Positions 41,385 to 51,025 of a stretch of DNA of 64,000 nucleotides are shown here, piece by piece. The stretch lies in assembly GCA_017676145.1 (NCBI GenBank), contig GCA_017676145.1_3628.1; one strand, written 5' to 3'. Numbering within the stretch: the first letter of the stretch is position 1; each line of letters starts with the position of its first letter. A model generated the notes under the pieces. That model was not told the DNA's origin and did no database searches. It worked only from the letters and a program-made list of their open reading frames with translations. Origin of the DNA: a phage. The position numbers and the translations under genes are program-made.

Positions 41385-41461
41385 TGGTCTCCACGGAGTG
41401 ATTCGAACACTCGACCTCCTGATCCCAAATCAGGCGCTCTACCAAGCTGAGCTACGCGGAG
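41385..41461 (-). tRNA. tRNA-Pro (anticodon UGG)
   Basis: hand-folded cloverleaf: acceptor CTCCGCG/CGTGGAG, anticodon loop TTTGGGA, T-loop TTCGAAT, 3' CCA encoded. Confidence 0.7.
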
Positions 41462-41472
41462 TATTTATAATT

Positions 41473-41547
41473 TGGTGGCCCTGGGTGGAATTGAACCACC
41501 GTCTGGCGATTATGAGTCGCTTGCTTGAACCTTCCAGCTACAGGGCC
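41473..41547 (-). tRNA. tRNA-Met (anticodon CAU; could be Ile2 if lysidinylated)
   Basis: acceptor GGCCCTG/CAGGGCC, anticodon loop CTCATAA, T-arm GGTGG-TTCAATT-CCACC, CCA encoded. Confidence 0.65.
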
Positions 41548-41548
41548 A

Positions 41549-41624
41549 TGGTGCTGATGGCAGGACTTGAACCTGCAACCTATTGATTACAAATCAATTG
41601 CACTACCGATTGTGCTACATCAGC
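41549..41624 (-). tRNA. tRNA-Thr (anticodon UGU)
   Basis: acceptor GCTGATG/CATCAGC, anticodon arm ATTGA-TTTGTAA-TCAAT, T-loop TTCAAGT, CCA encoded. Confidence 0.7.
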
Positions 41625-41629
41625 AAAAA

Positions 41630-41728
41630 GGTGCTAGGTGATGGAATCGAACCACCTATGTATTCAACGACTACCTCGTCTATTTTCAGGATTAAAAATC
41701 CTCGCCCTTGCCAAAGGGCTTACCTAGC
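41630..41728 (-). tRNA. atypical tRNA-like gene, anticodon UUU (Lys) candidate, with about 30 nt variable region
   Basis: perfect 7 bp acceptor GCTAGGT/ACCTAGC, D-arm GCCC-TTTGGCAA-GGGC, anticodon arm GAGGA-TTTTTAA-TCCTG, T-arm GGTGG-TTCGATT-CCATC; extra hairpin GACGA-GGTAG-TCGTT in variable region. Confidence 0.45.
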
Positions 41729-41826
41729 GCAATATGTTGACCATGTGGCTAGTCGGCGATGACGACTGTAACATTTGATAATCCGGTTCTGCTTCCGGCT
41801 TTCGCTTAATTACAAGGTCAACAATG

Positions 41827-41917
41827 TGGCGGAGAGTAATGGAATCGAACCATCATCGAGTCATCCTCAACGGGACGGTTTTCAAGACCGCTTGAGCACC
41901 ATTGCTCCCTACCCTCC
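41827..41917 (-). tRNA. tRNA-Ser (anticodon UGA), long variable arm
   Basis: acceptor GGAGGGT/ACTCTCC, anticodon arm GCGGT-CTTGAAA-ACCGT, T-loop TTCGATT, CCA encoded. Confidence 0.65.
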
Positions 41918-42031
41918 TTTATAAATTACACTGATAATGACACTGATTTTCGAGCAGTTAGTGACTAGTATAAACGACGATAAATATCAATGCCATTATC
42001 TGTATGATTTATGCATTTAAAAATATAAATT

Positions 42032-42119
42032 TGGTGGTGAGTGATGGAGTCGAACCACCCGAATCGCAATGATAACAGATTTACAGTCTGCCCCGCTACC
42101 CCTACGGAATTAACTCACC
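42032..42119 (-). tRNA. tRNA-Tyr (anticodon GUA), long variable arm
   Basis: acceptor GGTGAGT/ACTCACC, anticodon arm GCAGA-CTGTAAA-TCTGT, T-loop TTCGACT, CCA encoded. Confidence 0.65.
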
Positions 42120-42249
42120 TAAATACTAATATTTAAATTCTTTTTAAAATAGCTAGTGTTCTCACCACTAACTATGAGGTATCGGTAAAGTGGTTACCGC
42201 CACTTGCCGAAGATTTACTCTGCTAAAGTAAGCTACATTAAAAAGAACT

Positions 42250-42324
42250 TGGCACCCCGTACTGGACTCGAACCAGTGTCAACGGCTTAGAAGGCCGCTG
42301 CTTTATCCACTAAGCTAACAGGGC
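42250..42324 (-). tRNA. tRNA-Arg (anticodon UCU)
   Basis: acceptor GCCCTGT/ACGGGGT (two G-U pairs), D-arm GCTT-AGTGGATA-AAGC, anticodon loop CTTCTAA, T-loop TTCGAGT, CCA encoded. Confidence 0.65.
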
Positions 42325-45260: not shown

Positions 45261-45815
45261 TTACTCCCCGCTGTCAATAGCAAGACTCATTGCAATACGG
45301 TATGCCTCTTCTAATGGTAAGAGTCTCCCCCACACATCCCAACCGACATCAAACTGCCTGCCAAACAACTGTTGCGTGGTTCCGTGAGCATGACCGAACA
45401 GTTGGACTGATCCGTGATGCTTTCTGTTCCACGTTGCAAACTGGTAATGACTCATACAGATCAAATTCTTGTTGTGGCGAAACTCGTAATAATCTACAAC
45501 CTCATGATAGAACTCTTTCATAATTCTGACAGTCGTCCTTGTGTCATGGTTGCCACGAACAAGAATAATATGTCCGTTCAACATATTTAGAATATCTGGA
45601 AGTAAGTTGTTGATATTCTTATCATTAGTGCACGCAATATCCCCCAAGTGGAACACAGTGTCTGCAGGTGACACAACAGAGTTCCACTCGGTGATGATTC
45701 CAGCATTCATACTGTCAAGATTGTGATCATACTGAGATCTGTGTTTTTGACACGAGTCAAACTCCATGACCCGCTGGTGGAGAAAGTGTGTGTCACTTGT
45801 TACAAAGTATTTCAT
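45261..45815 (-). CDS. calcineurin-like metallophosphoesterase (candidate RNA 3' end-healing phosphatase)
   Basis: start at internal ATG 45815 with GAGGAA Shine-Dalgarno; motifs SDTHF, LGDIACTND, RGNHD, GHAH. Confidence 0.6.
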   Translation of the reverse strand: MKYFVTSDTHFLHQRVMEFDSCQKHRSQYDHNLDSMNAGIITEWNSVVSPADTVFHLGDIACTNDKNINNLLPDILNMLNGHIILVRGNHDTRTTVRIMKEFYHEVVDYYEFRHNKNLICMSHYQFATWNRKHHGSVQLFGHAHGTTQQLFGRQFDVGWDVWGRLLPLEEAYRIAMSLAIDSGE

Positions 45816-45822
45816 ACATTCC

Positions 45823-46233
45823 TCATTTAAGTTTAATGCAGTTTTTAAGCTGGCGTTCCATACGATCCACGACCATGTCTGGAACATCATGAATGCTTTT
45901 ATTACCGTGGCGGTTTTCAACCACGATTACGGTATAACTATACCCATGACTGATTGCCATGTCAACATATTCTTGCACATGTTTTTCTTTTGTAAACGTA
46001 TTACTTACCACGATACGGTCGTATCCCATACGCATCATATCTTCTACGTTATCTTTGCACCATTTTGCTGCAAGTGTTACTTTACTTGCATCCCAGTTGT
46101 AATTGCCGTCATCGTCGTACCAGAACATGTCGTTCTCAAAATGTGGATACAGACCTTCTAAAGATAGCGCATTTGCCAGTGTTGATTTGCCAGACCCTGG
46201 TAGACCACGCACGATATATAGCATTTTAGACAT
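45823..46233 (-). CDS. polynucleotide 5'-kinase (T4 Pnk kinase-domain-like)
   Basis: start at internal ATG 46233 with GGAGG Shine-Dalgarno; P-loop GLPGSGKST; IVVSNTFTK and VPDMVVDRMERQL parallel T4 Pnk kinase motifs. Confidence 0.7.
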   Translation of the reverse strand: MSKMLYIVRGLPGSGKSTLANALSLEGLYPHFENDMFWYDDDGNYNWDASKVTLAAKWCKDNVEDMMRMGYDRIVVSNTFTKEKHVQEYVDMAISHGYSYTVIVVENRHGNKSIHDVPDMVVDRMERQLKNCIKLK

Positions 46234-46351
46234 AGCGGCCCTCCGTTTTAATTTTAATGATAGTATAGCGTGCTCTTTTGAACATTTCAAGTGTTGACAT
46301 GATGCTGTTTGTGTGGGAAGATTGTGGAACAAAATGACAAATGAGGAACGT

Positions 46352-47269
46352 ATGATGAAGTATTTTAATGCAGACGACCTAGTTGACAAAGGTCTTGTAA
46401 CCAGCAGATATTACCCAGATCTTGGATTAAAGATCTATAAATATGCCAGAAAAGTATTTTACAACAATTTATGGCATTTGTCTCCTCGTTTGCTGGAGTG
46501 CCGGGGAATTGTTGTCGGTAATGAAGGAAATGTTGTGGCATGGCCCTTCACAAAAGTGTTTAACTTGGGAGAAAACTCCACCAACCTGCCTGACAATAAG
46601 CTTGTGACGGCGGTAGAGAAAAAGAACGGATTCCTTGGTGTGGTATCATCTCATAAAGGTGAACTATTGTTCTCAACAACCGGATCTCTTGATTCTCCAT
46701 ATTGTAACCTCGCAAAGGAAACCATCCAGGAGCAATGTGGTAATTTAGATCTTATCAAGAAGGTTATGGGCAAAGAAAACATGACATTCATGTTTGAAAT
46801 TTGTCACCCTTCAGATCCGCATATTGTTCAGGAAGATCATGGCGCATATTTGATAGGCTGCAGATATAATGATTCTGGAATAATGCTACCAGAAGCAGCT
46901 TTAGATGGGATTGCCAAACACCTTGGTGCAAAACGTCCTCACACTGTGCGTGAAATTCCGTTCAGCTATGCAAAAGAATTAGCTGCAGAAACAAGAGGTG
47001 AAGGGTATATGATTCGTAAGCCTTACTACCCTTATGACCTGCAGCTGAAGATCAAGTCTCCATACTATCTGGCACGGAAGGCCGTAATGAGGGGTAAGGC
47101 TTGGAAGATTTGGGATGATGATATCTTTAAACGTATTGACGAAGAGTTTTACGGCATGGTAAACTTCATTCGTAGCAATTACACAGAGGATGTGTGGAAC
47201 TGCCTCCTGGAGCAGGAACGCCGTGAGATACTTGATTGCTATTTCCACAACGAGGACTATATGCAATGA
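46352..47269 (+). CDS. RNA ligase (Rnl2-like nucleotidyltransferase)
   Basis: motif I-like EKKNG, motif IV-like EGYMIRKP, motif V-like KIKSPYY; start chosen at ATG 46352 after GAGGAA. Confidence 0.55.
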   Translation: MMKYFNADDLVDKGLVTSRYYPDLGLKIYKYARKVFYNNLWHLSPRLLECRGIVVGNEGNVVAWPFTKVFNLGENSTNLPDNKLVTAVEKKNGFLGVVSSHKGELLFSTTGSLDSPYCNLAKETIQEQCGNLDLIKKVMGKENMTFMFEICHPSDPHIVQEDHGAYLIGCRYNDSGIMLPEAALDGIAKHLGAKRPHTVREIPFSYAKELAAETRGEGYMIRKPYYPYDLQLKIKSPYYLARKAVMRGKAWKIWDDDIFKRIDEEFYGMVNFIRSNYTEDVWNCLLEQERREILDCYFHNEDYMQ

Positions 47270-47616
47270 AGAAGTTGATTGTGTGGCTTGATGATTTTAG
47301 AGATCCGTCAGATTATGGACTCCCAGACGCTCTGTGGCTAAAGAATTCTTCTGAGTTTATGGATTTCATCGATGACAAGGGAAAGCTATATAGACGCGTT
47401 TCTGAGTGGCATTTTGACAGCGACTTGGGAGAAATTTTTGAAGGATACGATTGCTTCTGCATACTAGAGGAAAAATTTGTATTTGGTAAGCCTCCTGTAG
47501 TTGACAACGTGAAGATTTTCGTGCATACTTCTAACCCATCAGCGGCTCGTAAATTCATGCTTGCTGCTGACTCGTTTAAAAAGTTTGGAATAGAGATTAA
47601 ACAAAACATCTACTGA
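47266..47616 (+). CDS. hypothetical protein, adjacent partner of SIR2 gene
   Basis: 116 aa from ATG overlapping upstream stop (ATGA); begins MKKLIVWLDDFRDPSD; single HTS motif; no family recognised. Confidence 0.4.
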   Translation: MKKLIVWLDDFRDPSDYGLPDALWLKNSSEFMDFIDDKGKLYRRVSEWHFDSDLGEIFEGYDCFCILEEKFVFGKPPVVDNVKIFVHTSNPSAARKFMLAADSFKKFGIEIKQNIY

Positions 47617-47624
47617 GGACACTT

Positions 47625-48386
47625 ATGCGACGACTGATCATTATCTCCGGCGCTGGTTTGAGCGCTGAATCTGGTATCCCAACTTTCCGATCTGGTTGCA
47701 CTGCAATGTGGGAGAATTTCAGCATCGATGAGGTGTGTAACATCCACACCTTTGCCAAGAACTACTATAAGGTGCATGACTTTTACAATGCACGGCGTGT
47801 AGCTCTGGGCAGTGTTGATCCTAACATTGCACATCTCCGGATCGCTGAGTGGTATTCCCGCTGGTCTGGTCGTGTGATCAACCTGACCACCAATGTAGAT
47901 GATTTGCTGGAGCGTGCTGGTGTAAAACATGAAGATATTTTACATGTCCACGGATATTTGCCAGAAATAGTCTATGAGGATGATGAAGGGAGTGACGTCA
48001 TTAAAGACATTGGATACTCTGAGGTAGATGCAAGCGAGTATACTTGGGTCAAGCCTAATGTGGTGTTCTTCGGAGAAGTAGCTCCGAAGTATACAGACAT
48101 GTATGACCTGTTGACTTCTCTTACGAGTAATGATATGGTTATCCTTGTAGGGTGTTCCAACACAGTTATCAATTTTAACTGGGAGCTATTCCCTGCCTGC
48201 AATAAGGGAACCAAACTGCTGATCGTTAACAAATACGACTCACAGCAGCTAGGGGAGAATGGTATTTCACGTAGTGATATTTACCAATATGAGGATCGCG
48301 GCATCCCAGTTTGGTTTAACGGGGCGGTTGATGCTTTCTCTGATAAAACATTCATTGAGACCGTAGAAAACTTTATGGAACTTTAA
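47625..48386 (+). CDS. SIR2-family NAD-dependent protein (sirtuin-like)
   Basis: GAGLSAESGIPTFRSG Rossmann motif and HVHG catalytic His motif; 253 aa. Confidence 0.7.
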   Translation: MRRLIIISGAGLSAESGIPTFRSGCTAMWENFSIDEVCNIHTFAKNYYKVHDFYNARRVALGSVDPNIAHLRIAEWYSRWSGRVINLTTNVDDLLERAGVKHEDILHVHGYLPEIVYEDDEGSDVIKDIGYSEVDASEYTWVKPNVVFFGEVAPKYTDMYDLLTSLTSNDMVILVGCSNTVINFNWELFPACNKGTKLLIVNKYDSQQLGENGISRSDIYQYEDRGIPVWFNGAVDAFSDKTFIETVENFMEL

Positions 48387-48399
48387 AAGGAGACCTTTA

Positions 48400-49113
48400 A
48401 TGCTGAATACCAAATTAATTGACAACCTGGAAAAACTGTCCCAACCTGAAAACTACCTTTGGTCTGCCAACTGGGTGGAAAACTGGAACCGTGTGGCAGC
48501 TAAAGTGAAAAAATCATACACACCATTCGAATTACAGCTTAGCTTCATTGAGGAAGAGTTCAATGAAGTTTTGGAAGAGCTGGAGAAAGGTGATGGCGGA
48601 GATCACCTGCTAAAAGAGGCCTGCGATCTTCACGTTGTCACAAGTTATGCCGCTTATCTTGTTAATGATAATCACGAAAAGTGGTCAAACCTGTTTGATA
48701 ATCCACAGGGTCTTAAGTTCAAGATCGGTGAGTTCTATGATACACTGATCGCTGCGAAAAACACCTCTAAGCAAAAAGCGTCCGCTTACCGCTTAGCAGA
48801 GTTGTCAACAGCTTTGCTGTTCCAGCTTCGCGGCGATGTGTGCGGGATGATGCGTAAGGTTCTCAAATCGAATGACAGCAAGTTTGCACGAGTCAACCAT
48901 CTACGGTATTCACACGGTGCCAGTGCAGATATGCCTGCTGAACAACTCATCGAGTTGGAGATTAAAGATCTTGAGCGACGCTTTGATGGTCGATATGAAG
49001 GTTTTGTTGCTAAGGAAGAATTCTACAACGGAAATAAAGTTATCATATTCCTCGACAGTAAAGGTAAGATTATGAAGCCTTCAAGCTTCAAGGATGTAAC
49101 AGAATATATTTAA
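48400..49113 (+). CDS. MazG-like nucleotide pyrophosphohydrolase
   Basis: EEEFNEVLEELEKGD and LLKEACDL acidic helix motifs. Confidence 0.45.
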   Translation: MLNTKLIDNLEKLSQPENYLWSANWVENWNRVAAKVKKSYTPFELQLSFIEEEFNEVLEELEKGDGGDHLLKEACDLHVVTSYAAYLVNDNHEKWSNLFDNPQGLKFKIGEFYDTLIAAKNTSKQKASAYRLAELSTALLFQLRGDVCGMMRKVLKSNDSKFARVNHLRYSHGASADMPAEQLIELEIKDLERRFDGRYEGFVAKEEFYNGNKVIIFLDSKGKIMKPSSFKDVTEYI

Positions 49114-49119
49114 CAACAT

Positions 49120-49147
49120 AGCCGGGGCGATCCCGGCTTTACTTGTT
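49120..49147 (+). terminator. rho-independent terminator
   Basis: GCCGGG-GCGAT-CCCGGC hairpin followed by TTTACTTGTTT. Confidence 0.5.
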
Positions 49148-49177: not shown

Positions 49178-49486
49178 ATGTACAAGCACTCCAGAGACCT
49201 TGAAAACGATGCTGTGTTTGGAGATCAGATGAAAGAATTGGTTAAACTTATAGGTAGGATAGAGGATAAGTTTGACACTAAGATCTACATCGACAGCAAA
49301 GTATTCAACCACAAAATATGGACAAATCTGTGTGTTGGACTACATGGAGATAAGGATGTGGTAAATTTAGTTGTAATTAAGTTCATAGTGTGGCAGAATA
49401 GAACCATAAGTTATTACGATCCGCACCTACTTGTTTACCCGATAAAAGATCTATTAGAGAAGGAGGACTGCAATGCCGTTATTTAA
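49178..49486 (+). CDS. hypothetical protein
   Basis: 102 aa ORF. Confidence 0.3.
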   Translation: MYKHSRDLENDAVFGDQMKELVKLIGRIEDKFDTKIYIDSKVFNHKIWTNLCVGLHGDKDVVNLVVIKFIVWQNRTISYYDPHLLVYPIKDLLEKEDCNAVI

Positions 49487-49742
49487 TCTTGCTAAACCTG
49501 TAGAAGCACACCAGTTTGATGGAAGCTCTTCATCAGTATCTGATCTGCAACGGTGGATTGATACAGGTGTGTTTACATCGTCACCTGTTCGAACCAGAGA
49601 TATTCTTCGCATGTGTGAGCTTGTCGAGCCGTTTGGTAACCTTGTCTTGTACCAAGGGGATTGGTTAGTTGACTTTATGGGAGACTGGTTGGTAATGAGC
49701 AAAGAAGAGATGTTTAAAATTTTTAAGGAAGAGGCTGAGTAA
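49473..49742 (+). CDS. hypothetical protein
   Basis: 89 aa ORF, overlaps neighbours. Confidence 0.3.
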   Translation: MPLFNLAKPVEAHQFDGSSSSVSDLQRWIDTGVFTSSPVRTRDILRMCELVEPFGNLVLYQGDWLVDFMGDWLVMSKEEMFKIFKEEAE

Positions 49743-51025
49743 TGCATCAGATCAAAACAACACTGTACGCACTGAACAAAGATGGCAGCTACCAACAGTG
49801 GAAAGTATTCACGGATGGTGATAAGGTTATCGTAGAGTTTGGCAAGCTTGATGGTAAACTGCAATACAAAGAGACGATCTGCACACCTAAGAACGTTGGT
49901 CGTGCCAATGAAACTACAGCTGAGCAACAGGCTGAGCTGGAAGCGATCAGTAAGTGGGAAAAACAAGTCCGTCTGGGGTATGTTGAAAATATGGAAGATT
50001 GCGAGCAGGGTGTTGACCTTTTACCCATGCTGGTGCATGACTACCTGAAGCGTGGAAAGGCACTTAAATTACCTTGCTGGATCTTGCGTAAGTTAGATGG
50101 CCTTCGTCTACTTGTTGTTTTCCAAAATGGTGAGCCTAAATTTATTTCCCGTGGTAATAAGTCCTACCCTATTCAAGGAAAGCTTCTGGAGCAACTTCGT
50201 TCTTTCCACTTCACCACCGGGATTAAACAGCTCGACGGAGAGATCTATATTCATGGCCTGCCTCTGCAGAAAATAGTGTCTCTTGCTAAACGGTGGCGCA
50301 CACAGGAAGAGATTCAGGCCGAGATCGATAAAGACTACGAGGCAGATAAAAAACGCCGTCATGCCGCAATTAAGGCAGGCTTATCAACATACAAAAACTT
50401 CAACAAGGTAGATATTCCTGTTGATGTTGAGCCTGTTCGTGATGATTTGCGTTACGGTGGGTACTGTAGCTACGATCTAGAGTATCACATTTTTGATATT
50501 CCTAGTGACAAGGTGTGGTGGGATCCAGAAACAGAATCTGGACGCTGCAAGGATCTTATGGATGTAGAAGATACCATTACCACTCTGATGCTTGACCATA
50601 TCAAGGTTGTTGACGCAGAGCTTGCGTACACAGTTGATCATTGCGAAGAATCTGTCGGTGTATTCATGTCCGAAGGGTATGAAGGTACTATCATGCGTAA
50701 CTTCTGTGGTAAATACGAATACGGTCAGCGAACATCTGAAGCATTGAAATGGAAAAAGTTCAACGATGCTGAGGTGAAAGTTATTGACGTTGAGAAAGAT
50801 AAGAATGATGAAGGTGTTCTTATCTGTGTTGACAAGGAAGGTATTGTTGTTAAAATGAAGATGAAAGGTACGCACGAGGAGCGTAGCTATGACAGGATGC
50901 AGGAAATGATCGGCAAGTTTGTCACCTTCAAATATCAAGCAAGGACAGAAGACAACAACTACCAATTCCCTGTCGGTATCTGCGTCCGAAATGTTAACCC
51001 AGACACTTGGGAGGTGCTGGAATAA
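49742..51025 (+). CDS. ATP-dependent DNA ligase
   Basis: motif I KLDGLR, motif III LDGEIYIHG, motif V-like LKWKKF. Confidence 0.65.
   Translation: MHQIKTTLYALNKDGSYQQWKVFTDGDKVIVEFGKLDGKLQYKETICTPKNVGRANETTAEQQAELEAISKWEKQVRLGYVENMEDCEQGVDLLPMLVHDYLKRGKALKLPCWILRKLDGLRLLVVFQNGEPKFISRGNKSYPIQGKLLEQLRSFHFTTGIKQLDGEIYIHGLPLQKIVSLAKRWRTQEEIQAEIDKDYEADKKRRHAAIKAGLSTYKNFNKVDIPVDVEPVRDDLRYGGYCSYDLEYHIFDIPSDKVWWDPETESGRCKDLMDVEDTITTLMLDHIKVVDAELAYTVDHCEESVGVFMSEGYEGTIMRNFCGKYEYGQRTSEALKWKKFNDAEVKVIDVEKDKNDEGVLICVDKEGIVVKMKMKGTHEERSYDRMQEMIGKFVTFKYQARTEDNNYQFPVGICVRNVNPDTWEVLE

Follow-up and report, generated by a model that had tools for sequence, protein, structure and literature searches.

A divergent sirtuin and a receiver-fold cREC protein as putative components of a nucleic-acid end-repair cluster in an rV5-like coliphage

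Introduction

A sirtuin-centred RNA-repair neighbourhood has previously been described in phages by comparative genomics (Iyer, Burroughs, Anantharaman and Aravind 2022, Viruses 14:1977; PMC9503650, section 3.7.3). Its type 2, for which Escherichia phage V5 and Proteus phage Mydo are the prototype, comprises a sirtuin, a T4-like RNA ligase and a cREC protein as well as a nucleotide kinase, a pyrophosphatase of the MazG superfamily and, optionally, a calcineurin-like phosphoesterase; a third type covers the HAD association of the T5-like phages and SP15. Here, we analyse the corresponding locus in a 64,000-nucleotide (nt) stretch of phage DNA (contig GCA_017676145.1_3628.1 of NCBI GenBank assembly GCA_017676145.1, hereafter the window), with emphasis on two neighbouring plus-strand genes. 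The first (47266–47616) encodes a 116-amino-acid (aa) protein consisting of a stand-alone receiver-fold domain of the cyclic-phosphate processing Receiver domain (cREC) family, and the second (47625–48386) a 253-aa phage-clade sirtuin, i.e., a class III (CobB/SIRT5-like) SIR2 domain without zinc-binding cysteines. The gene content of the window is identical to that of the type 2 neighbourhood, with all six components located within 45261–49113 and nothing essential differing. With a confidence that we would place halfway, we read cREC and the sirtuin as parts of a module with which the phage repairs nucleic-acid ends, most likely those of RNA or tRNA, and not as a self-contained two-gene system.

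The authors of the 2022 paper proposed that the sirtuin acts in a KptA/Tpt1-like manner, i.e., by nicotinamide adenine dinucleotide (NAD)-dependent removal of an RNA 2′-phosphate, and that cREC and other phosphoesterases open an RNA cyclic phosphate or process the resulting adenosine diphosphate ribose (ADP-ribose) cyclic phosphate (PMC9503650). The cREC domain itself was named and defined in a 2021 jumbo-phage paper by the same authors, who offered cyclic ADP-ribose (cADPR) as an alternative substrate (PMC7824862). It was still experimentally uncharacterised at the time of the later study (PMC9503650), and the cyclic phosphodiesterase activity of cREC is, in the literature, a predicted one. 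The idea of an RNA-directed sirtuin next to a catalytic cREC was therefore already advanced computationally in 2022, and an earlier remark in the preliminary description of this DNA, that a phage copy of SIR2 would be unusual, does not stand because its context of RNA ligase, kinase, phosphoesterase and MazG had already been published for this phage group (PMC9503650). What the present analysis adds to that work are the boundaries of the transcription unit, structure models, the motif changes that set the sirtuin clade apart, a count of how separable both genes are, and a probable NADAR-like replacement of cREC in Hena1-like phages.

Likenesses to other described systems are partial. With the class III sirtuins CobB and SIRT5, the phage protein has in common the GAGxS, FR, HG, VxFGE and Y-x-x-R motifs and the N and D of xNxD, while the overall fold (template modelling (TM) score of about 0.75–0.83) and the domain size are alike as well. 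In contrast to CobB and SIRT5, however, it has no zinc cysteines, reads TTNVD and GCSN at two motifs, shows 27–28% identity, scores below every NCBIfam CobB equivalog cut-off, and resides in a context of RNA-end repair instead of metabolism. Tpt1/KptA of the yeast Trl1-Tpt1-Cpd1 pathway is likewise accompanied by a kinase and an RNA ligase of the PF09511 family, but the fold of Tpt1 is of the ART type and the customary cyclic phosphodiesterase belongs to the 2H enzymes, whereas in the phage the candidates for these roles are a sirtuin with a Rossmann fold and cREC with a receiver fold. With its sirtuin Rossmann fold, the phage protein has neither the ART-superfamily fold nor membership of the Tpt1 sequence family, and its relation to Tpt1/KptA would be an analogy of function, not homology, for an activity that is itself predicted.

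The T4 Pnkp-Rnl1 system, which repairs damage by the PrrC anticodon nuclease, likewise combines a phage P-loop polynucleotide kinase and an Rnl1-family ligase beside phage tRNA genes. Nevertheless, the kinase of the window is a stand-alone protein without HAD phosphatase domain, the ligase scores far under the RnlA equivalog cut-off (39 vs. 242), and the gene set is enlarged by a calcineurin-type phosphoesterase, cREC, a sirtuin and MazG. With the defence-associated SIR2 NADases (ThsA, DSR1/DSR2, SIR2-HerA and SIR2-pAgo), finally, membership of the SIR2 superfamily is the sole likeness, as the phage sirtuin belongs to a different sirtuin class, has no PADLOC match and carries no sensor or partner domain (SLOG, HerA, pAgo or TIR).

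Results

The DNA of the window is 95–96% identical to ca. 120 GenBank records of rV5-like phages (Vequintavirus), e.g., the BASEL phage RudolfGeigy, and by this identity the window is assigned to Vequintavirus, i.e., to an rV5-like coliphage. These records already name the product of the 253-aa gene a sirtuin-domain deacetylase and list that of the 116-aa gene as hypothetical. The gene pair and its context are already known by comparative genomics for this phage group, with the sirtuin and the RNA ligase already named in GenBank.

Both open reading frames (ORFs) proceed as initially described, with MKKLIVWLDDFRDPSD as the N-terminus of the 116-aa cREC and MRRLIIISGAGLSAESGIPTFRSG as that of the 253-aa sirtuin. 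The start-stop overlap noted upstream of the smaller ORF was also recovered, the ATG of cREC overlapping the TGA of the RNA ligase ORF (caATGAag), whereas the spacer from the cREC stop codon (47614–47616) to the sirtuin ATG (47625) measures 8 nt and not the 9 nt reported earlier. Both start codons are preceded by a Shine-Dalgarno-like GAGGA. Homologues of both proteins are plentiful, and ratios of nonsynonymous to synonymous substitution (dN/dS) against two related phages amounted to 0.06–0.13 for cREC and 0.06–0.09 for the sirtuin, from which it follows that both are protein-coding genes under purifying selection. Separately from this, the DNA of cREC (47266–47613) is only 89% identical to that of RudolfGeigy (dS of 0.44), as opposed to 97.8% for the flanking RNA ligase and 98.9% for the MazG-like gene, and this mosaic divergence suggests recombination across the cREC–sirtuin segment.

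The 253-aa protein matched the Pfam SIR2 family (PF02146; 1e-26, 94.4 bits at a cut-off of 24) and PHROG 2162 "Sir2" (1e-108). Its closest PDB match was E. coli CobB (2e-21), and human SIRT5 and archaeal Sir2Af were retrieved as well. Structure prediction, which had been suggested as a check on both proteins, yielded a CobB-like AlphaFold2 (AF2) model for the sirtuin (predicted local distance difference test (pLDDT) of 89.2), with CobB 6rxq as the top Foldseek match (2.5e-18; TM scores of 0.75–0.83). The sirtuin Rossmann and HG motifs recognised at first inspection were both borne out by alignment. Specifically, G9-A10-G11-L-S13 aligns with the GAGIS of CobB (i.e., the Rossmann NAD-binding motif), and H109-G110 (within LHVHGYL) and N90/D92 align with its HMHG and QNID, the latter two sets of positions being constant in all 33 members of a clade alignment spanning 50–98% identity. 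The Q of the xNxD motif is replaced by T89. Y54 and R57 form the class III Y-x-x-R motif, which in this class binds acidic acyl groups, within a FYNARR stretch identical to that of CobB. Residues invariant throughout the clade (n = 33) are GAG, S16-G17, F21-R22, Y54, R57, T89-N90-V91-D92 and H109-G110, together with F148-F149-x-E151 (FFGE), G176-x-S178-N179 and N202. The catalytic residues, for which the preliminary description had advised an alignment, are present and intact.

The reported lack of zinc-ribbon cysteines was found to extend to the whole clade, as the stretch from residue 110 to residue 145 is free of cysteines in the query and in all 33 clade homologues. The four cysteines that the protein does have (C25, C38, C177 and C192) all lie outside the segment of approximately residues 111–142 that aligns with the zinc module of CobB, the positions of which are occupied by I/V/Y and D/A/S/E in the phage sirtuin. 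In the model, this segment retains the same length and forms a beta hairpin-like element (strands 110–118 and 124–128). The clade is thus marked by TTNVD for TQNID, by GCSN for GTS, and by the loss of the zinc cysteines.

Among the NCBIfam models, the best for the sirtuin were CobB-type, but the top one reached 120.9 bits at a cut-off of 243 and the CobB equivalog model 101 at a cut-off of 320, so that with scores less than half of the cut-offs the protein falls short of equivalog-level similarity to CobB. No significant match was found among the defence SIR2 profiles of PADLOC, the best hit being to an unrelated candidate model (13.2 bits, E of 0.0099, over 33 residues). Since its motifs are invariant, its CobB scores stay below cut-off and no PADLOC match emerged, the phage sirtuin is judged from its sequence to be a divergent class III-like sirtuin that looks catalytically competent. 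By the same kind of evidence it is neither a ThsA/DSR/HerA-type NADase nor a decoy. The comparison with defence SIR2 NADases drawn in the preliminary description gives way to CobB and SIRT5 class III deacylases as nearest relatives, and its suggestion of a decoy or inhibitor of host SIR2 defence is unlikely because the checked NAD-binding and catalytic residues do not vary across the clade. Its suggestion of an NAD-dependent modifier is compatible with the evidence, while a reading as an NAD-depleting effector found no support.

The 116-aa protein, which had been described as a partner without assignable motif, matched Pfam PF20274 cREC_REC (4e-13, 50.3 bits at a cut-off of 27, covering profile positions 2–83 of 88) as well as PHROG 1479, and the same Pfam call was obtained for 21 out of 21 full-length homologues. 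Its AF2 model (pLDDT of 91.7) displays a (beta-alpha)4-beta receiver fold ending directly after beta5, and the conserved aspartates expected of a receiver (CheY-like) fold are found at the ends of beta1 and beta3. The invariant residues fall on the active-site positions of a receiver: D9-D10 follow beta1, D51 closes beta3 with D53 two residues later, and T88-S89-N90-P91 close beta4. K96 in alpha4 is invariant too. From this arrangement we infer by analogy that the D-x-D at the phospho-acceptor position may resemble the nucleophile and acid/base pair of HAD phosphatases. In the window, cREC is associated not with a histidine kinase partner but with RNA-repair and NAD-related genes, i.e., those for the RNA ligase, the sirtuin, the MazG-like protein, the kinase and the metallophosphoesterase.

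An exhaustive profile search with cREC retrieved 821 cluster representatives, nearly all of which are stand-alone proteins of ca. 100–125 aa. When the 10 longest multi-domain proteins among the 150 best representatives were tested, nine had no second Pfam domain, and the tenth was a 2443-aa Ig-repeat protein that is probably a spurious match.

In the gene context of the window, the cREC–sirtuin pair forms the middle of a unit of four genes (RNA ligase, cREC, sirtuin and MazG) that is part of an end-healing and end-sealing cluster. The unit opens with a gene for an Rnl1-family (T4 RnlA-like) adenosine triphosphate (ATP)-dependent RNA ligase (46352–47269, +; Pfam RNA_lig_T4_1 2.8e-15; PHROG 562), whose start was taken from the 918-nt coding sequence annotated as RNA ligase in RudolfGeigy (the mechanical ORF starts at 46313). 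As a single sequence this ligase had no significant match in the PDB and it scored 39 against the NCBIfam RnlA cut-off of 242, a result that types it neither as T4 Rnl1-like nor as 2′-phosphate-dependent Trl1-like. The unit closes with a candidate MazG-like all-alpha nucleotide pyrophosphohydrolase (48400–49113, +; PHROG 671 at 6e-22, with a weak Pfam PRA-PH match at 0.085). The genes are spaced by the ATGA overlap, 8 nt and 13 nt, respectively, and a terminator follows the fourth gene only: the GC-rich hairpin at 49120–49138, with an 8-bp stem (6 GC pairs) followed by a T run (TTACTTGTTT), is terminator-like on both strands, and "Terminator" features are annotated at the matching region in phages Gotham and HdK5.

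The kinase and the metallophosphoesterase are transcribed divergently from this unit. The former (45823–46233, −) is a 136-aa P-loop (AAA_33) polynucleotide kinase-like protein (Pfam AAA_33 6.8e-10; annotated as polynucleotide kinase in RudolfGeigy), and the latter, downstream of it (45261–45815, −), is a 184-aa calcineurin-like protein (Pfam Metallophos 3.4e-6; PDB 1xm7 6e-11). Searches of the PDB with the kinase and the MazG-like protein gave no informative match. In the intergenic region (46234–46351), no convincing sigma-70 promoter was found on the plus strand, and a minus-strand sigma-70 match at 46290–46262 could serve the kinase. An ATP-dependent DNA ligase gene (49742–51025, +; Pfam DNA_ligase_A_M and DNA_ligase_OB_2) is a syntenic member of the wider end-repair cluster. 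Some 3 kb away from the repair genes, a tRNA gene cluster is located at 41385–42324 (−), with six genes according to ARAGORN and seven tRNA-type matches in Rfam; these tRNAs are possible substrates and are mentioned as context.

Counted over the INPHARED phage set, 977 records carry the sirtuin clade and 358 carry cREC. We further surveyed 25 cREC loci and 60 sirtuin loci from IMG/VR together with their encoding contigs (L-numbers label loci), which were annotated with hidden Markov models built from the window proteins and their homologues. Next to the arrangement of the window, as seen in Vequintavirus, Mydovirus-like phages of ca. 146 kb (L010–L015) carry on one strand the genes for metallophosphoesterase, RNA ligase, cREC, kinase, sirtuin, DNA ligase and MazG. 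In Hena1-like phages of ca. 147–149 kb (L073, L082 and L085), the order is metallophosphoesterase, RNA ligase, kinase, a 161-aa protein, a 72-aa protein, sirtuin, DNA ligase and MazG, with cREC absent within 10 kb. In phi92-like phages and Phapecoctavirus, cREC is grouped with metallophosphoesterase, DNA ligase and MazG (and in part with RNA ligase and kinase), and the sirtuin is found ca. 30 kb off among uncharacterised genes (e.g., in the phi92-like ECO340P2, with cREC at 100.8 kb and the sirtuin at 131.4 kb). Locus L070 is a further reshuffled variant of the gene set, and in T5 and T5-like phages a HAD_SAK_2 phosphatase gene precedes the sirtuin by two genes.

In related lineages, the kinase is co-located with the RNA ligase, the MazG-like gene accompanies the cluster in most related myovirus lineages of ca. 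135–155 kb, and the DNA ligase is conserved beside the cluster in most of the related lineages. The metallophosphoesterase lies ca. 2.5 kb or less from cREC in the Vequintavirus, Mydovirus-like, L070 and phi92-like lineages and also at the distant loci L031–L033, and tRNA genes are likewise found upstream of the cluster in L018, L012 and L085.

More distant sirtuin relatives were encountered two genes after an RNA_lig_T4_1 gene, with an arginase-family gene also upstream (L090, 7582–9723, on a 607-kb contig), directly after a nicotinamide phosphoribosyltransferase (NAMPT) gene (L089, 8057–9493, on a 120-kb contig), and directly before a nucleoside 2-deoxyribosyltransferase-like gene (L092, 10713–11198, on a 279-kb contig). 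In independent lineages, the recurrent neighbours of the sirtuin are thus RNA-end phosphoesterases, RNA ligase and NAD-recycling enzymes. Distant cREC proteins (26–37% identity) have no sirtuin nearby and mixed DNA-metabolism neighbours, i.e., helicases, DUF1848, an AAA ATPase, MazG and deformylase.

The preliminary description had taken the 116-aa protein for a dedicated small partner of the sirtuin. The sirtuin clade, however, is found in 977 phage records as opposed to 358 for cREC, T5-like phages have no cREC within 10 kb, both genes lie ca. 30 kb apart in phi92-like phages, and several cREC lineages have no sirtuin nearby. A dedicated two-gene system was rejected because cREC and the sirtuin are often apart in the surveyed loci; both are frequent but separable members of the cluster, not an obligate pair.

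At the place that cREC takes elsewhere, i.e., between kinase and sirtuin, the Hena1-like phages encode the 161-aa protein (9079–9564 in L082, 9090–9575 in L085 and 9302–9790 in L073). This family has at least 155 homologues, some of them fused to DUF4326, and no Pfam model. The best PDB match of its profile is the NADAR protein 8bau (E of 0.005), and Pfam NADAR was matched at 0.028 in 2 of 21 members. Going by these matches, the family is probably a divergent NADAR-like ADP-ribose-processing domain, and the Hena1-like arrangement would be consistent with displacement of cREC by another enzyme for ADP-ribose derivatives.

Two further cREC loci deserve mention in their own right. On a 144.8-kb phage contig, NAD-salvage genes (NAPRTase and a PRPP-synthetase-like gene; L002, 642–3539) are located ca. 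2.5–5 kb upstream of cREC, with the repair cluster present and the sirtuin absent within 6 kb. On a 259-kb jumbo-phage contig, three cREC paralogues occur in tandem (L029, 9986–11067) among neighbours without Pfam matches.

Discussion

The sirtuin reaction starts with the attack of a substrate oxygen on C1′ of the nicotinamide ribose, after which the His-activated 2′-OH attacks the electrophilic centre of the substrate, and Tpt1 carries out the equivalent chemistry with a phosphate oxygen and phosphorus. From this established knowledge of both enzyme classes, Tpt1-like chemistry is plausible for the phage sirtuin. In the pathway that we propose along the lines of Iyer et al. (2022), host ribonucleases would cut tRNA or other RNA and leave 2′,3′-cyclic-phosphate and 5′-OH ends. 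The kinase would then phosphorylate the 5′ end, while cREC and/or the metallophosphoesterase would open or remove the cyclic phosphate; where cREC acts, D51 would likely form a phospho-aspartyl intermediate and D53 would serve as acid/base. After sealing of the break by the RNA ligase, the sirtuin would use NAD+ to remove the residual 2′-phosphate, the phosphate oxygen attacking C1′′ of NAD+, nicotinamide leaving, and the His-activated 2′′-OH attacking phosphorus. The ADP-ribose by-product could be disposed of by cREC (or by the NADAR-like enzyme in Hena1-like phages) and further enzymes. In SIRT5 and CobB, a carboxylate is bound by the Y-x-x-R motif, and it is tempting to speculate that in the phage sirtuin this motif could bind phosphate.

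That both proteins act in RNA-end repair or in the processing of ADP-ribose derivatives is a proposition that we hold to be about evenly balanced. The specific 2′-phosphotransferase (Tpt1-like) step by the sirtuin is put forward more tentatively. Equally doubtful is the fullest version of the scheme, in which the phage sirtuin would be the first RNA-acting sirtuin and a non-homologous analogue of Tpt1/KptA, and cREC a true phospho-aspartate cyclic phosphodiesterase, both joined in a plant/yeast-style pathway. The end-repair reading is supported by the six domain assignments, the tight packing of the genes with a single terminator, and the recurrence of the gene set in shuffled order, and also by the independent links of the sirtuin to RNA-end and NAD enzymes (HAD_SAK_2, RNA_lig_T4_1 and NAMPT, which recycles nicotinamide). 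Moreover, the sirtuin motifs and the acidic pocket of cREC are invariant, tRNA genes adjoin the cluster, and the same role was predicted for the V5 neighbourhood in the published work.

Several observations weigh against this reading. Since most of the neighbourhoods come from one group of related myoviruses of ca. 135–155 kb, common descent may account for part of the synteny. Sirtuin and cREC also come apart: the phi92-like phages keep cREC in the cluster and the sirtuin ca. 30 kb off in an unrelated context, and in T5-like phages RNA ligase and tRNA genes are, like cREC, all absent within 10 kb of the sirtuin. Three loci (L004, L016 and L020) combine cREC with phosphoesterase, DNA ligase and MazG without RNA ligase or kinase, no consistent RNA-repair signal was seen near the distant cREC loci in a small sample, and none of the 10 longest multi-domain cREC proteins tested was a Rosetta-stone fusion with a sirtuin or another enzyme. 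The metallophosphoesterase alone could clear the cyclic phosphate, as in T4-type repair, in which case no 2′-phosphate would arise. Literature searches, finally, found no published experimental work on cREC or phage sirtuins.

The acyl-lysine-site motifs VxFFGE and FYNARR would fit an ordinary protein deacylase equally well, and the sirtuin could accordingly be an NAD+-dependent CobB-like lysine deacylase (deacetylase or desuccinylase) that resets acylation of host or phage proteins, e.g., of translation or RNA-metabolism factors, with cREC unrelated or loosely co-regulated. Its nearest relatives in sequence and fold are all protein deacylases (E. coli CobB, Sir2Af, SIRT5 and Sir2Tm), the top NCBIfam models are CobB-type, Y-x-x-R (FYNARR), the VxFGE substrate-strand motif and the catalytic His are all present, and the sirtuin occurs without RNA-repair neighbours in phi92-like phages and without RNA ligase in T5-like phages. 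Nevertheless, we consider this explanation rather unlikely, as the CobB equivalog scores are far under their cut-offs (at best 121 vs. 243), the zinc module, which is part of the peptide cleft, has lost its four cysteines clade-wide, the near-universal TQNID has become TTNVD, and the recurrent association, in separate lineages, with genes for phosphoesterases, RNA ligase and NAD salvage would be left unexplained. Such linkage to NAD-salvage genes (near cREC in L002 and beside the sirtuin relative in L089) would also suit counter-defence against NAD/ADP-ribose or cyclic-nucleotide signalling (Thoeris-type cADPR isomers or 2′,3′-cyclic nucleotides), with cREC hydrolysing the signal and the sirtuin converting or consuming an ADP-ribose-related molecule. 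The authors who named cREC indeed proposed cADPR as its alternative substrate (PMC7824862), and in ECO340P2 the sirtuin lies ca. 4 kb from an Acb2/Tad1-hairpin gene, the other genes around it being uncharacterised. The pair in the window, however, is embedded in a ligase/kinase/phosphoesterase cluster and not in an anti-defence island, similarity to known sponge or anti-Thoeris proteins and PADLOC matches are both lacking, and it is hard to see how a sirtuin would help to destroy a signal, all of which makes counter-defence improbable.

We assign a similarly low probability to healing of DNA ends or adducts by a core of cREC, metallophosphoesterase and ATP-dependent DNA ligase, with DNA termini or DNA ADP-ribosylation as the target of the sirtuin. 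The persistence of cREC, metallophosphoesterase, DNA ligase and MazG without RNA ligase and kinase in L004, L016 and L020 is in keeping with it, as is the presence of distant cREC proteins among helicase and DNA-metabolism genes. The phosphoesterase also weakly matches the ligase-associated PdeM family, but its score is far under the cut-off (19 vs. 150), and in the window the RNA ligase is followed immediately by the tightly packed cREC and sirtuin, whereas a terminator and two small ORFs intervene before the DNA ligase. Least probable by far, and largely refuted by the sequence comparisons, is a sirtuin that depletes NAD as an effector, or that serves as inactive decoy or inhibitor of host SIR2 defence, with the 116-aa protein as its dedicated regulator. 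Common SIR2 superfamily membership is all that speaks for it. Against it stand the lack of a significant match to PADLOC defence SIR2 profiles (at best 13 bits, E of 0.01, over 33 residues), the closest similarity to class III deacylases, the absence of a sensor domain from the protein, the invariance of catalytic and NAD-binding residues, and the dispensability of the partner in most sirtuin-bearing phages. From the interpretation given in the preliminary description, a SIR2-family NAD-dependent enzyme with a tight upstream link is therefore retained, and the unassignable partner, the unusual pair and the defence-like or decoy role are not.

If the predicted end-repair role is true, RNA would be a new substrate class for sirtuins, and a receiver-fold domain would have a catalytic, non-signalling role. 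Common coliphages (rV5-like, Mydovirus-like and possibly T5-like phages, the latter with sirtuin but without ligase) would then carry NAD-consuming RNA repair against host ribonuclease defences, with a bearing on phage host range, on the design of phage therapy and on the reason why phages carry NAD-salvage genes. Because the locus is known from comparative genomics for this phage group, its novelty is low, and the interest that remains is biochemical instead of genomic.

Additional observations

Between the terminator and the DNA ligase gene, two small conserved ORFs of 102 and 89 aa (49178–49742, +) belong to PHROGs 7684 and 14585, both of unknown function. In the tRNA cluster, a tRNA-like gene of 97–99 nt (41630–41728, −) was reported by ARAGORN as "tRNA-???" with the four-base anticodon atcc and scored 35.5 bits with the Rfam tRNA model, while its counterpart in RudolfGeigy is annotated as a 97-nt tRNA-Lys; it may represent a tRNA that carries an insert or intron, or else a degenerate tRNA. 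Another tRNA (42035–42119, −; Rfam, 39 bits) was missed by ARAGORN and is probably the tRNA-Tyr annotated in RudolfGeigy. Finally, ca. 20 phage-database records labelled "Campylobacter phage" (host C. jejuni; e.g., MG065652.1 and MG065646.1) are 95% identical to the E. coli rV5-like region of the window, and are probably mislabelled or contaminant assemblies.

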